DNA of 62,896 nucleotides from Bacteroidia bacterium (GTDB lineage Bacteria > Bacteroidota > Bacteroidia > UKL13-3): the NCBI GenBank assembly GCA_034676125.1, contig JAUCCO010000003.1, positions 1-62,896 on the forward strand. Reading direction: 5' to 3'. The notes beneath the pieces are model-generated. The model did no database searches, was not told where the DNA came from, and was given only the letters and a program-made list of their open reading frames with translations. Shown here piece after piece: positions 49,206 through 54,076 of the stretch; within the stretch, counting starts at the first letter, position 1, and every line of letters starts with the position of its first letter. A program made the position numbers and the translations under genes.

Positions 49206-50612
49206 ATGACAACCCGAATTGAACACGACTTTCTTGGAGAAAAAGAAATAGAAAACACTAAATATTATGGTGTACAAACTTTGCGTGCACTCGAAAATTT
49301 TAACATTACTGGTTTAACCATTTCGCGTGAACCATTATTTATTAAAGCATTTGCACATGTAAAAAAAGCTGCTGCATTAGCAAACTTTGATTGCGGTGTG
49401 CTTACAAAAGAAATTACTGATGCCATTTGTTTTGCTTGCGATGAGTTGCTTACAGGAAAATATGACGACCAATTTGTAAGTGACCTAATACAAGGTGGAG
49501 CTGGTACTAGCTGTAACATGAATGCCAATGAGGTGATTGCCAATATTGGTTTAGAACACATGGGAAAAGCTAAAGGCGATTACGATTTTTTACATCCAAA
49601 TAATCATGTAAACTGCTCGCAAAGCACCAATGATGCCTACCCTACTGCTTTCCGTTTGGCTTTATACCACAAGATGGGCACTTATGTAGATGCTTTAAAG
49701 GTATTGCAAGATGCTTTTAGCCGCAAAGCTGTTGAGTTTAAAAGTGTAATAAAAATGGGCCGTACGCAATTACAAGATGCCGTGCCTATGACTTTGGGTG
49801 CTGAGTTTCATGGATGGGCAACTACCATTAATGAAGACATACAACGCATCACAGAAATGCAACAACTGTTACTGGAAGTTAATATGGGAGCTACGGCAAT
49901 TGGTACACGTATTAATGCGCCAGAAGGTTACCCAGAATTATGTGTAAAATACCTAGCCGAAATTAGTGGATTAAAAGTAAGTTTAGCTGAAGATTTAATT
50001 GAGGCAACAAGTGATACTGGAGCTTATGTATTGATAAGTGGCACATTAAAAAGAAGTGCAATTAAAATATCAAAAATTTGTAATGATTTACGTTTATTAA
50101 GCAGCGGACCTCGAACTGGGTTTAATGAAATAAATTTACCAAAACTGCAACCAGGTAGTAGTATTATGCCAGGCAAAGTAAACCCCGTAATGCCCGAAGT
50201 AGTAAACCAAACTGCCTATTACGTAATTGGTGCCGATGTTACCATTAGTATGGCTGCCGAAGCAGGCCAATTGCAGCTTAACGTAATGGAACCTGTTATT
50301 GCATTTAGTTTATTTACATCATTTACCTACATGGGTAATGCCATTTTAGGTTTGGTTGATAAGTGTATTATTGGCATTACTGCAAACGAAGAAGCTTGCA
50401 GAAATATGGTGATGAATAGCATTGGAATTATTACTGCACTAAACCCAATTTTAGGTTACGAAGCTTGCAGTGTAATTGCTAAAGAAGCATTAGAAACTGG
50501 TAAAAGTGTGCATGATATTGCAGTTACCGAAAAACAATTGATAACCCAACAAAAATGGGACGAAATATTTAACCTCGATAACTTAATTAACCCTAAGTTT
50601 ATTAATAAATAA
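49206..50612 (+). CDS. aspA: Aspartate ammonia-lyase
   Basis: YYGVQTLRALENF, QGGAGTSCNMNANE, QSTND, GRTQLQDA, GSSIMPGKVNP and GQLQLNVMEP. Confidence 0.93.
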   Translation: MTTRIEHDFLGEKEIENTKYYGVQTLRALENFNITGLTISREPLFIKAFAHVKKAAALANFDCGVLTKEITDAICFACDELLTGKYDDQFVSDLIQGGAGTSCNMNANEVIANIGLEHMGKAKGDYDFLHPNNHVNCSQSTNDAYPTAFRLALYHKMGTYVDALKVLQDAFSRKAVEFKSVIKMGRTQLQDAVPMTLGAEFHGWATTINEDIQRITEMQQLLLEVNMGATAIGTRINAPEGYPELCVKYLAEISGLKVSLAEDLIEATSDTGAYVLISGTLKRSAIKISKICNDLRLLSSGPRTGFNEINLPKLQPGSSIMPGKVNPVMPEVVNQTAYYVIGADVTISMAAEAGQLQLNVMEPVIAFSLFTSFTYMGNAILGLVDKCIIGITANEEACRNMVMNSIGIITALNPILGYEACSVIAKEALETGKSVHDIAVTEKQLITQQKWDEIFNLDNLINPKFINK

Positions 50613-50632: not shown

Positions 50633-50669
50633 AAAAAGGCTGTTTTTAGAATATAAAAACAGCCTTTTT
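50633..50669. terminator. Bidirectional intrinsic terminator between aspA and the PepSY-like gene
   Basis: Perfect inverted repeat AAAAAGGCTGTTTTTA/TAAAAACAGCCTTTTT between convergent genes. Confidence 0.85.
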
Positions 50670-50692: not shown

Positions 50693-51142
50693 CTAGTCGG
50701 CTTTTTTGCTTAAAACATTGCCATCCGCATCAAACAATACTTTCCATTTTTCTGATAAAGTTTTTAGTTCTACTTTATAGGAAACCTTACCGCCTTCGGT
50801 AATTTTATCTACATCACTCGTTCTAAATCCATTGTAATCAGATTTTATTTTGTCTGAAACTTTTTGTGGCAATTCGGTTGAAGATATTTCTTCTTTGTGA
50901 CGGATTAATTTACCCATTTTATCATACCAAACTTCGTGATCTTGCCCAAGCAAACCAAGTTCAAACTCTACTTTAAACATTTCGCCATCCATCTCCCACT
51001 CCACATCAGACGCTTTAGGAAACTTTTGTTGAAAATTATTTACCACCACTGATGGAACTTGGCTTTGCGGAATATCACGTCCGTAAGCAGTGCCCAATGT
51101 TAAAAACAAAGCAAAAGCACCAATTAAAATTTTATTTTTCAT
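50693..51142 (-). CDS. Exported PepSY-like (BLIP-like) repeat protein
   Basis: Signal peptide; VPSVVVNNFQQKFPKASDVEW...FKVEF...WYDKMG, with a second repeat LPQKV...YKVEL...FDADG. I prefer the ATG at 51142 because a -7-like box overlaps 51167-51174. Confidence 0.88.
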   Translation of the reverse strand: MKNKILIGAFALFLTLGTAYGRDIPQSQVPSVVVNNFQQKFPKASDVEWEMDGEMFKVEFELGLLGQDHEVWYDKMGKLIRHKEEISSTELPQKVSDKIKSDYNGFRTSDVDKITEGGKVSYKVELKTLSEKWKVLFDADGNVLSKKAD

Positions 51143-51185
51143 ATTATTATTTATTAAATTTAAGTTCAAAGTTCATTCCAGATTC

Positions 51186-51203
51186 TGGAAAGAAATGGGA
51201 ATT
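51186..51203 (-). promoter_or_regulatory. Putative response-regulator operator, copy A
   Basis: TGGAAAGAAATGGGAATT on the plus strand, 11 nt from the -7-like box GAACTTTG. Confidence 0.7.
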
Positions 51204-51204
51204 T

Positions 51205-52008
51205 TTAAGGTAAGTAAATAATTCTAAAAAAAGAACTAAAACTATTGTTTGAAGCACATATAGGAATACCCGTAACAAACCCAATTGCAAGTTGATTACT
51301 AAGCCTAATTTTAGCTTGCGGGCGAACTGTTAATTCATAGCCATGCTGTCCTAATTCGTTATTAAACTCAACCCCAATAAAGTGTTTTGAATGTGGAATA
51401 TTATAATGAAATGAGGTGTTGATTTCCCAATTAGTGGTTAAATTTTGTTCAATAACCGAAGTAGCATAAACTAATGAGTGTAATTGGTTTCCCCAGCGTT
51501 TGGCAGCTACAAAAAATGGATTAAAAGTAAAATTGGTTAATAGGTTTTGTTTACCATAGTTTTTAAAATCTGTAAAGCCAATAACTTGGGTATAACCAAC
51601 TGCTAAAGTAGTTTGATATGTTGCAGATACAAAGAACGAATATTGAGCAGAAAGTCTTAATCCTTCTATCTTATTATTTAAGCTTTCAACTTCTTTAACA
51701 GTTCCATTATAAAAAGAAAAATCAACTTCTGCTTCTAACCCCAAGCGGTTAATTGGTGCAAATTCATACTCGGCTAATAAGTTGTATTTATTACAGTTGT
51801 TAATATTCGAAAAATTAGCCCCAAAATTAAATTCCTTTTCACCTTTAAGTGCACCTAAATCACGCACCAAATCATTATAAAGCGGCTCGGCATGTGATAC
51901 CTTAATGGGTTTATCAAAATTAATTTGTGCATTACTCTTTTCTATAACAGCTGTGGTTATTAAAGTAGATAAAACACCTTTATAAAAATAATTTTTTATC
52001 CAATTCAT
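51205..52008 (-). CDS. HAEPLYID-like family protein (probable outer-membrane beta-barrel)
   Basis: KVSHAEPLYNDLVRDLGALKGEKEFN, EYEFAPINRLGLEAE and amphipathic strands. Confidence 0.78.
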   Translation of the reverse strand: MNWIKNYFYKGVLSTLITTAVIEKSNAQINFDKPIKVSHAEPLYNDLVRDLGALKGEKEFNFGANFSNINNCNKYNLLAEYEFAPINRLGLEAEVDFSFYNGTVKEVESLNNKIEGLRLSAQYSFFVSATYQTTLAVGYTQVIGFTDFKNYGKQNLLTNFTFNPFFVAAKRWGNQLHSLVYATSVIEQNLTTNWEINTSFHYNIPHSKHFIGVEFNNELGQHGYELTVRPQAKIRLSNQLAIGFVTGIPICASNNSFSSFFRIIYLP

Positions 52009-52031
52009 ATAGCAAAATAACTACATGATAT

Positions 52032-52049
52032 TGGAATGATTTGGGAATA
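52032..52049 (-). promoter_or_regulatory. Putative response-regulator operator, copy B
   Basis: TGGAATGATTTGGGAATA, 11 nt from the -7-like box TTATTTTG. Confidence 0.7.
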
Positions 52050-52072
52050 ACGTTAGTTACCATTTAATAAAT

Positions 52073-53359
52073 TTAACAGTTATTAAATCGTAACTCAAAT
52101 TGGTGTTGGTTATTTACAAACTGATACGAAATGGTAAATCCATACAATACACAAATTGCTTTAACAATTGCTAAACCAAGGCCTGTGTTTGATTGTTCGT
52201 TGTTTGATTTATAAAACCGTGTAAAAATTTTATCAGCATTTAATGCTTCGTTTTTACCAGAGTTAGAAACTTTAATTACGTTTTCGGAAATATCAACCAA
52301 AACGAAACCATTATTAACATTATGAAAGATGGCATTTCTAAGCAAATTTGCTATAATAATATTTGCAAGTGCACTATCCATTTCTACAACCAATTCAAAC
52401 GATTGTTGCTTGTTTAATTTTACATGTTTAAATGCAGCTAAATCATACAAATCATCAAAATTATCATCAACAACTTTATTCATACTAATAGATTGATTAT
52501 CTAAAAACTGCTTATTTTCAATTTTAGTAAGTAACAACAACGATTTATTTAACCTAACCAATCGCTCAATAATATTCATAACTTCAACTATACTTTCTGC
52601 TTGGTTATCTGCTAAACCCTCATTTTCTAACAACAACTCAAGCTTGTTAATGGCAATAGCTAAAGGTGTTTGCAGCTCGTGCGAAGCATTTCCTATAAAT
52701 TGTTTTTGTTGATTGTAAGTTTCTAAATTGTGCCCTAACAATGTATTTACAGCAATTTGCAAATCAGTAAATTCTTTGGTTTTGGTTTTAACTTCGGGTA
52801 AGTTACTGTTACTTCCCACTCGGTAACTTTTTAGTTGTTGCAAAAAATCGTAAAAAGGTTTCCATAATCTTTGTAAAACAAGGTTATTAATTACAATAAT
52901 ACTTAGCAGTAAAATTAAATATAACCAAACGGCTTGCCAAAGTAATTCTGCAATCAAATCATCCTCTTCAACCATTGGGTTAATTATCTTTAATTTATAA
53001 TACCGCCCATTATTTTCAAAAGCAGTGGTAAGCATCCTTACTGGCTCCAGCTCTAACTCAATATCATCTGCATCTTGCATATAAATTAAGGTATCAATGC
53101 ACCTATCTTTAATGGTGATGGCCTCAGATTCCTCAATTGCTGTAATGGCAAAAAAACCTTCCTTAAAAGTGTGTTGGTTTAAAATAGAAGTATCCTTTTG
53201 GCTTTTATAAACTATTTGTCTTTTATAGTTTTCTAGGCCTTCATCAACACTTTCTTTTATCTCATTAAGCATGATAAAATAGAAAACCACCGTCCATAAA
53301 CTAATGATGAAGAATATTGAAACCGATAAATATTTTAATGATTGATTAAGTAGTTTCAT
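52073..53359 (-). CDS. Sensor histidine kinase (two TM helices, HisKA and HATPase)
   Basis: H-box NASHELQTPL, NLLRNAIFH, FTRFY and GLGLAIV; overlaps the response regulator stop by 4 bp. Confidence 0.93.
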   Translation of the reverse strand: MKLLNQSLKYLSVSIFFIISLWTVVFYFIMLNEIKESVDEGLENYKRQIVYKSQKDTSILNQHTFKEGFFAITAIEESEAITIKDRCIDTLIYMQDADDIELELEPVRMLTTAFENNGRYYKLKIINPMVEEDDLIAELLWQAVWLYLILLLSIIVINNLVLQRLWKPFYDFLQQLKSYRVGSNSNLPEVKTKTKEFTDLQIAVNTLLGHNLETYNQQKQFIGNASHELQTPLAIAINKLELLLENEGLADNQAESIVEVMNIIERLVRLNKSLLLLTKIENKQFLDNQSISMNKVVDDNFDDLYDLAAFKHVKLNKQQSFELVVEMDSALANIIIANLLRNAIFHNVNNGFVLVDISENVIKVSNSGKNEALNADKIFTRFYKSNNEQSNTGLGLAIVKAICVLYGFTISYQFVNNQHQFELRFNNC

Positions 53360-54033
53360 TTTTCAATTAACTTATAGCCTATTCCATAAACAGCTTCTAT
53401 CTCGATACCAGCATTTGCCGATTGTAATTTTTTACGAAGATTTTTTATTTGATAATATATAAAATCAAAATTATCTGCTTGATCAATATTGTCGCCCCAA
53501 ACGTGCTCTGCCAATGCACTTTTAGAAACCAACCGGTTTTGATTAAGCAAAAAATATTTTAACACATCAAACTCCTTTCTATTAAGCATTACATTTTGGC
53601 CATTAATTAACAATTGTCTTTCGTTTAAATCTAAACTAAGGTTAGCCACTTCAATGGTGTTTTTTCCACCTAACATTTTGCGTCTTAAAACCGCCTTTAC
53701 CCTAGCATTAAGCTCGGCAATATGAAATGGTTTTGTTAAGTAATCATCTGCTCCTAAATCCAATCCTTTAAGTTTATCATCAAGTGAATTTTTGGCCGAA
53801 ATAATAATCACATTATCCGATTTTTCTGATTGTTTTAATTCCTCTAAAAGTTCAAGCCCGTTGCCGTCTGGCAGCATAATATCCAATAAAATGCAATCAT
53901 AATCATACACCAATAGTTTTTCTCGAGCATCATCGATAGTACTGGCCGTTTCAATCACAAAATGTTCTTTTTTTAATGATTCAACCAGTGTATCCAATAA
54001 TTCTATTTCGTCTTCAACAATCAGCATTTTCAT
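53356..54033 (-). CDS. OmpR/PhoB family response regulator
   Basis: MKMLIVED, LDIMLPDGNG, GADDYLTKPF and winged helix ending VYGIGY. I prefer the ATG at 54033 over the TTG at 54051. Confidence 0.95.
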   Translation of the reverse strand: MKMLIVEDEIELLDTLVESLKKEHFVIETASTIDDAREKLLVYDYDCILLDIMLPDGNGLELLEELKQSEKSDNVIIISAKNSLDDKLKGLDLGADDYLTKPFHIAELNARVKAVLRRKMLGGKNTIEVANLSLDLNERQLLINGQNVMLNRKEFDVLKYFLLNQNRLVSKSALAEHVWGDNIDQADNFDFIYYQIKNLRKKLQSANAGIEIEAVYGIGYKLIEK

Positions 54034-54038
54034 AAGCA

Positions 54039-54076
54039 CAAATATAGCCAATCAATATGGGAACGAATTGGGAATT
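54039..54076 (-). promoter_or_regulatory. Promoter of the two-component operon: -7 box plus operator copy C
   Basis: Perfect -7 box TATATTTG (54039-54046) and GGGAACGAATTGGGAATT (54059-54076), 12 nt apart. Confidence 0.72.

Follow-up and report, generated by a model that had tools for sequence, protein, structure and literature searches.

A conserved direct-repeat box at three promoters of a two-component cassette with envelope proteins in a Bacteroidia bacterium

Gene content of the cassette and position of the box

The stretch of DNA analysed here, called the window, comprises positions 1 to 62,896 of contig JAUCCO010000003.1 (assembly GCA_034676125.1; Bacteroidia bacterium, lineage UKL13-3). 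It contains a minus-strand cassette of four genes, about 3.4 kb long, which codes in this order for an OmpR/PhoB-type response regulator, a sensor histidine kinase, an outer-membrane protein of the HAEPLYID family and a periplasmic PepSY_like protein (PF11396, formerly DUF2874). Three start codons of the cassette are preceded by one and the same box, and we consider it probable, at roughly three chances in four, that the regulator encoded in the cassette uses this box as its operator and would thereby activate three promoters including its own.

An earlier note, made from the sequence alone, had described a single 18-bp operator at three promoters with GGAA half-sites 11 bp apart, and both statements are borne out. 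The three 18-mers lie at 51186-51203, 52032-52049 and 54059-54076, their consensus is GGAANGAWWTGGGAAT (ATTCCCAwwTCnTTCCA when read on the gene strand), and on that strand TTCC stands at box positions 0 and 11 in every one of them. All are intergenic, share a common orientation and stand ahead of a start codon. The distance of 11-12 nt to a -7-like box and the placement over the -33 region, also claimed in the earlier note, hold as well: in the same order, the -7 boxes GAACTTTG, TTATTTTG and TATATTTG (TAnnTTTG-like) follow 11, 11 and 12 nt past the box on the gene strand. The consensus of primary-sigma promoters in Bacteroidota is TAnnTTTG at -7 and TTTG at -33; the TTTG at -33 is lacking from all three cassette promoters.

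In order to score the sites, a 20-nt weight matrix was built from 59 strict TTCC-N7-TTCC sites, 56 of them in related loci and three from the window itself. Box 1 (ATTCCCAATTCGTTCCCATA, 54056..54075, minus strand) precedes the response-regulator gene and scores 25.1 bits; the -7 box of this regulator/kinase promoter (TATATTTG, 54039..54046, minus strand) ends 5 nt before the ATG, so that the transcript would be leaderless or nearly so. Box 2 (ATTCCCAAATCATTCCAATA, 52029..52048, minus strand; 24.3 bits) precedes the HAEPLYID gene, with the -7 box TTATTTTG (52013..52020, minus strand) 4 nt before the ATG. Box 3 (ATTCCCATTTCTTTCCAGAA, 51183..51202, minus strand), which begins 3 nt past the HAEPLYID stop codon, precedes the PepSY_like gene and is, with 30.6 bits, the best site of the genome; its -7-like box GAACTTTG (51167..51174, minus strand) leaves a leader of 24 nt to the ATG. 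In this last promoter the second half-site forms, together with an inverted third half-site, the palindrome TTCCAGA-N-TCTGGAA (51176..51190), and the inverted half-site is located between Box 3 and the -7 box.

Exact matches to the consensus number three in the window and likewise three in the whole genome (3.61 Mb, 34% G+C), all inside the cassette. When up to two mismatches were allowed, five matches were found in the window versus 0.47 expected, a count reached by 0/100 shuffles. The three cassette boxes also take the top three matrix scores of the genome; their own sites contributed to the matrix, so this ranking is partly circular, while the pattern count is independent of the matrix. Two further candidates were discarded as regulon members: the next-best site by matrix score (20.7 bits, C53:6214) lies within an open reading frame of the opposite strand and has no downstream gene, and a site with one mismatch (C29:11423) lies within an open reading frame of 848 aa. 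In this genome, as judged from the sites, the putative regulon is confined to the cassette.

The regulator gene (53356..54033, minus strand; ATG taken at 54033) codes for 225 aa with a receiver and a winged-helix domain, matching PF00072 with 95.6 bits and PF00486 (Trans_reg_C) with 64.9 bits, and its sequence shows the phospho-acceptor D51 as well as K101. The protein stayed below every NCBIfam equivalog cut-off, the top matches being PmrA, RppA, PhoB and CopR, and reached 157.7 bits with the Bacteroidetes PhoB model, whose cut-off is 270. The kinase gene (52073..53359, minus strand; 428 aa, HisKA and HATPase_c, H227) overlaps the regulator gene via ATGA. Hydropathy places membrane helices at about residues 11-33 and 138-162; the periplasmic domain between them, of about 100 aa, is acidic, and the acidic motifs YMQDADD, EPVR and SMVEEDDL are conserved in it. 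In the model of the kinase (predicted local distance difference test, pLDDT, 85) this sensor domain is predicted to adopt a small PAS/PDC-like fold; a fold search with it gave weak PAS/PDC-type matches at most (the best being a WalK model, E 2e-4), from which no ligand could be inferred.

The HAEPLYID protein (51205..52008, minus strand; 267 aa with a signal peptide) scores 324.3 bits against NF041634 at a cut-off of 125, and the PepSY_like protein (50693..51142, minus strand; 149 aa, with a signal peptide and two repeats) scores 52.7 bits against PF11396 at a cut-off of 28.3. The internal spacers of the cassette measure 64 and 62 bp, and a terminator scan revealed no terminator-like site within either of them. 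The sole terminator-like site of the cassette is a hairpin of 16 pairs with runs of A and T on its flanks at 50633..50669, which is shared with the convergent gene at 49206-50612. A search of the region against Rfam returned one sub-threshold chance match, on this hairpin.

Conservation of the box with the two-component system

A motif scan of this and of related genomes had been proposed in the earlier note, and the box does recur in relatives. A kinase search with one genome per species yielded 31 related loci, besides one spurious weak match, from Flavobacteriales, Cytophagales, Sphingobacteriales and Chitinophagales and from one genome of Mangrovibacterium (Bacteroidales). Kinase identity among these loci ranges from 41 to 63%, the closest relative being Taishania pollutisoli with 63%. 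Regulator and kinase are present in 31/31 loci and PepSY_like in 29/31. The box was found ahead of the regulator gene in 28 of the 31 loci and, where a PepSY_like gene exists, ahead of that gene with one exception (28/29); among HAEPLYID genes it precedes each one observed in a cassette (L016, L017, L046, L093 and L094). The 59 sites give the consensus ATTCCCAAwTCTTTCCArAw, that is, two 11-bp units of the form TTCCCA-N5-TTCCAA, with an information content of 1.35 bits per position compared to 0.19-0.22 in the 29-nt upstream flank. The geometry noted above is kept across these orders: in 29/29 PepSY_like promoters the 20-nt box is followed at exactly 16 nt by the G of the -7 TTTG, and in 27 of the 28 related regulator promoters the start codon comes 19-22 nt past the end of the box.

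Seven HAEPLYID genes of relatives, four of them from the same genus, have no adjacent two-component system, and the box is absent from all seven (best matrix score <= -8 in the 150 nt upstream). We also scanned 19 other genomes with the strict pattern for sites beyond the cassette; in the first 14 of them it gave 42 matches versus 8 for the reversed control. Only two sites outside a cassette had both a -7 box and a downstream gene. They come from two species of Zobellia, and the gene codes in each for an additional PepSY_like lipoprotein; a Galbibacter site with a -7 box was rejected, as no open reading frame follows it. The pattern of occurrence thus indicates that inheritance of the box follows the two-component system rather than the HAEPLYID gene. 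Because extra-cassette sites with promoter context precede PepSY_like paralogues only, the predicted regulon is essentially self-contained in every genome examined. The autoregulated, self-contained two-component regulon proposed in the earlier note is therefore supported by the conserved box and geometry, by the lack of any further credible site in the genome and by the way the box tracks the two-component system.

In Bacteroidales a variant of the module was found. The kinase family scored above its cut-off in 43 of the 151 genomes sampled from this order, and an OmpR-type regulator gene lies directly upstream of the kinase gene in all 30 loci inspected. In eight of the nine loci with downstream open reading frames listed, the kinase is followed by one small gene, or two, whose predicted N-termini are of the PepSY_like type, and Pfam confirmed PepSY_like in the four products tested, from two loci. 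Many of these loci carry, in front of the regulator and PepSY_like genes and at an unchanged position, a drifted box with TTTCAGA-type 11-bp repeats. The recognition helix of the regulator differs as well, reading DFIYAQ, DFIYTH or DFVYAH in Bacteroidales and DF(I/V)YYQ, less often YSQ, in loci with the canonical box; this co-variation of helix and box agrees with the regulator being the protein that would read the box. Among studied systems, HaeSR (PG0720/PG0719) of the periodontal pathogen Porphyromonas gingivalis comes nearest in gene order, as likened here by its locus description: Scott et al. 2013 (PMC3764172) give PG0720 as regulator, PG0719 as kinase, PG0718 as a hypothetical protein and PG0717 as a lipoprotein with four DUF2874 domains. 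The order regulator, kinase, DUF2874 protein(s) is thus common to both, and there are Bacteroidales loci in the sample that show the HaeSR gene order, with two PepSY_like genes. According to that paper, HaeR binds its own promoter in electrophoretic mobility shift assays (EMSA) and in chromatin immunoprecipitation (ChIP) followed by sequencing, the system is linked to hemin, and 57 ChIP targets are given; judging by a term search and its ChIP section, the paper defines no binding motif. Compared with these 57 targets, the regulon predicted here is confined to the cassette, and it includes an outer-membrane channel.

The promoters of the relatives show several further features. Some relatives have multiple boxes in phase: the HAEPLYID gene of Chryseobacterium has two, at a distance of 22 bp (L094:4939-4980), and three to four 11-bp units precede a Bacteroidales PepSY_like gene (L105:2805-2846). 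About half of the related PepSY_like promoters, and no regulator or HAEPLYID promoters, contain a CCCAA...T(T/C)GGG inverted element; an intrinsic terminator formed by the CCCAA...TTGGG repeat was judged unlikely, given its short stem, its loop of 10-11 nt and a regulator-gene box that lacks the repeat. In about 17 of 29 PepSY_like leaders (loci among L018-L039) there is another inverted repeat, whose 5' arm comes right after the -7 box and whose 3' arm ends at the start codon. Its arms vary on both sides between species (TCTTGTAA/TTACAAGA, TTGTATAA/TTATACAA, GGTATATA/TATATACC, TAGTA/TACTA), and it could be a translation-limiting hairpin or a second palindromic operator; the PepSY_like leader of the window and that of Taishania lack it.

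In most flavobacterial and cytophagal relatives the start of the regulator must be a GTG 4 nt past the -7 box, since the MKILVIED of the receiver domain is encoded from there, which implies a putatively leaderless or near-leaderless, GUG-initiated mRNA. Finally, the Cyclobacterium locus L044 lacks the PepSY_like gene and its box. In their place is an open reading frame (L044:5247-5576) whose start lies slightly within the kinase gene at its 3' end and whose N-terminus resembles, by eye, a REP-associated (IS200-type) transposase.

Envelope proteins of the module

Structure prediction of the barrel, suggested in the earlier note, gave a closed 12-stranded barrel after the signal peptide of the HAEPLYID protein in a confident AlphaFold model (pLDDT 91.2). 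The motif SHAEPLY, at residues 38-44, lies in an N-terminal segment of about 30 residues that is unstructured in the model. The top Foldseek matches were the 12-stranded FapF, a COG4313 channel and KdgM, with template modelling (TM) scores of about 0.65. All HAEPLYID homologues match PF28045, and invariant pairs of glutamates at positions i and i+2 mark the first three strands (E57/E59, E80/E82 and E92/E94); these pairs should face the lumen. Many database HAEPLYID proteins bear the name 'phosphoribosylformylglycinamidine synthase', which is incompatible with a secreted beta-barrel of 270 aa and looks like a propagated misannotation.

The HAEPLYID gene is not the only outer-membrane gene found in such cassettes. 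A full-length HAEPLYID gene stands between the kinase and PepSY_like genes in three related loci (the match in L026 is weak and apparently broken), and, via HAEPLYID homologues, we found it in the same slot in a metagenome contig and in a Chryseobacterium genome. Closely after PepSY_like, on the same strand, the related cassettes have a gene for an outer-membrane protein, which overlaps PepSY_like or leaves a gap of <= ~45 nt. This gene is DUF2490-like in 14 loci, although the representative scanned is a weak match (24.4 bits against a cut-off of 29.8), and of the Porin_O_P (OprO/P) type in 8 loci; in L034 such a porin comes after the DUF2490-like gene, which brings the cassettes with an OprO/P-type porin to 9 of 31, and the Chryseobacterium locus also has a DUF2490 gene after PepSY_like. 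The constant output predicted from these gene orders is PepSY_like plus one interchangeable outer-membrane channel, either HAEPLYID, DUF2490-like or OprO/P-type. The earlier note had given an outer-membrane protein as the output of the circuit; a channel is indeed part of the putative regulon, but PepSY_like is its constant output and HAEPLYID represents one of three channel families.

Outside the module, HAEPLYID genes adjoin a Kir-type potassium channel (L010:3889-4839), a SulP transporter with a beta-carbonic anhydrase (L012:4884-7136) or a DUF808 gene (L009:3444-4316). The Kir-type and SulP/beta-carbonic anhydrase neighbours are a weak hint at small-ion traffic.

For PepSY_like, a sequence search of the PDB identified 3u1w, 4fr9 and 4k61 as relatives, all of them structural-genomics entries without a known function. 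The paper on these structures points out a concave face of strongly acidic character and says nothing of a kinase context (PMC2954215), and in Bacteroides thetaiotaomicron the PepSY-like genes BT0922-0923 are up 3.7- to 5-fold on iron depletion (PMC10434189). One may speculate that the acidic surfaces on all three envelope proteins relate to a cation-related cue.

Reading of the box and known systems

OmpR-family regulators bind direct repeats with a period of 10-11 bp, and in class II activation of the PhoB type the site abuts the -10/-7 element, which is the placement of the box described here. The fixed distance to the -7 box and the lack of TTTG at -33 correspond to this geometry, under assumed start sites. 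The following mechanism can then be proposed. A dimer of the phosphorylated regulator would bind the direct repeat head-to-tail at about -41 to -25, take the place of the missing -33 element and recruit primary-sigma polymerase to the -7 box 11-12 nt downstream, as PhoB does at pho boxes. Since the spacing to the -7 box is fixed, activation through polymerase contact would be expected rather than occlusion. The first promoter would drive the regulator and kinase genes and provide positive autoregulation by a leaderless or nearly leaderless transcript, the second would drive the HAEPLYID outer-membrane channel and the third the periplasmic PepSY_like protein. As the internal spacers have no terminator, read-through from upstream promoters is probable and would add to the expression of the downstream genes. 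At the PepSY_like promoter, the inverted third half-site (51176-51190) might limit the output.

Some points weigh against an operator read by the cassette's own activator. In a search for RNA evidence, the sequencing runs that contain the window sequence proved to be DNA metagenomes only (bioreactor, sludge). Three of the related loci, L041, L043 and L045, have no box before the regulator gene, and the co-variation of recognition helix and box is confounded by phylogeny. Furthermore, the -33 element is weakly conserved in Bacteroidota generally, so that its absence here is soft evidence for dependence on an activator, and a GTG start 4 nt past the -7 box in many regulator genes would be an unusual leaderless arrangement.

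Other explanations were weighed against this operator. The same regulator might bind the same box as a repressor, blocking polymerase over the -33 region in a negative autoregulation. HaeR is reported as both activator and repressor in the P. gingivalis study (PMC3764172). In the cassette, the box overlaps the promoter, and the inverted third half-site could occlude polymerase at the PepSY_like promoter. Nevertheless, we regard repression as unlikely: the -7 spacing is invariant in about 60 promoters from several orders, as expected for a stereospecific contact with polymerase and unneeded for occlusion, a polymerase acting unaided would find no -33 TTTG, and the placement of the box fits activation of the PhoB class II type. 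Even less probable is a factor encoded elsewhere, either another transcription factor or an alternative sigma factor with the box as its upstream element. Although the link between the box and this particular regulator is indirect, the box is found nowhere else in this genome and in others essentially only at the cassette or at PepSY_like paralogues, and HAEPLYID genes unlinked to a two-component system are devoid of it. The downstream element is a primary-sigma -7 box, by which a promoter for an extracytoplasmic function (ECF) sigma factor was ruled out; moreover, the TTCC orientation is unlike that of ECF -35 elements, whose gene-strand sequence is GGAAC. A chance or non-functional repeat, which has nothing more in its favour than the short length of the motif, is practically refuted by conservation, as the box is kept across orders while its flanks are randomised; in addition, shuffled sequences never reached the observed count and all three copies of the genome (3/3) lie in one cassette.

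A different question is whether the kinase could be the PorY of this organism, with the cassette under PorXY control of type IX secretion. The kinase passes the cut-off of the NCBIfam 'PorY family' model NF052314 (496.9 vs 350 bits) and is the sole such kinase in the genome, which also encodes a PorX equivalog (contig C89:2210-3748, 519 aa, 808 bits). In P. gingivalis, PorY has PorX as its partner and is described as having no regulator gene next to it (PMC4800418), whereas the cassette kinase is translationally coupled to an OmpR-type regulator. The 30 Bacteroidales loci inspected likewise have such a regulator gene directly upstream of the kinase. Nor does the kinase family co-occur with PorX: PorX is present in 38/41 relatives and in 17/17 genomes of the genus and the kinase family in 7/41 and 1/17, and Bacteroides thetaiotaomicron has a kinase match over the cut-off and no PorX match. 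PorXY control is therefore very improbable, and on these sequence grounds we would not file the cassette under PorXY. Since the kinase family is found in one of the 17 genus genomes, the cassette, as far as gene content tells, is accessory in this genus; and since PorX is found in all 17 of them, NF052314 does not identify the partner kinase of PorX in this genus.

The proposed circuit is of an ordinary type, namely an autoregulated OmpR-family system with a PhoB-like operator. With PhoB and the pho box of E. coli, and also with the PmrA, PhoP and CusR branch, the cassette has in common a receiver plus winged helix, an 11-bp direct repeat and a presumably autoregulated regulator/kinase operon; as at pho boxes, the operator substitutes for the -35/-33 element and lies immediately before the -10/-7 element. 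It differs from PhoB in its TTCCCA/TTCCAA half-sites, in the -7/-33 promoter of Bacteroidota, in the confinement of the regulon to the cassette and in a regulator that reaches no equivalog cut-off. EnvZ/OmpR control of porins and Pho control of PhoE and OprO/OprP likewise put an outer-membrane channel under an OmpR-family regulator; here, however, the channel is a predicted 12-stranded HAEPLYID barrel whose family is interchangeable between genomes. In the CpxAR-CpxP and ZraSR-ZraP systems of E. coli, too, an autoregulated system has an adjacent small periplasmic protein as its most conserved target. CpxP and ZraP feed back on their own kinases, and PepSY_like might do so by analogy, although their folds are unrelated to that of PepSY_like.

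Given a module of regulator, kinase, PepSY_like and one exchangeable channel of the outer membrane, the most likely task of the circuit is to adjust the permeability of this membrane to a periplasmic cue, which would be read by the small acidic PAS-like domain of the kinase. A more far-reaching proposal, which we put forward tentatively and hold to be possible at rather low odds, is a three-tier trans-envelope device specific to Bacteroidota, in which the channel would admit the cue, PepSY_like would act as co-sensor or feedback partner of the kinase domain and the regulator would close the loop by means of one type of operator.

A literature search found no paper on the operator, on a link between the two-component system and PepSY_like or on HAEPLYID, and none that joins PorY and PepSY; DUF2874 was named in no more than three papers. 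What is new is the membership of the module, its architecture conserved throughout the phylum and a functional context for two families without known function. The analysis provides a precise operator and promoter architecture for a two-component module that many Bacteroidota carry, two of whose proteins belong to these families, namely HAEPLYID and PepSY_like/DUF2874, the latter with several crystal structures. On kinases like this one, the 'PorY family' label is not to be read as a link to type IX secretion. The drifted box of Bacteroidales could help to reinterpret the HaeR ChIP data of P. gingivalis, and, if the three-tier device were true, PF11396 and PF28045 would gain a function and the HaeSR system of P. 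gingivalis a defined operator class.

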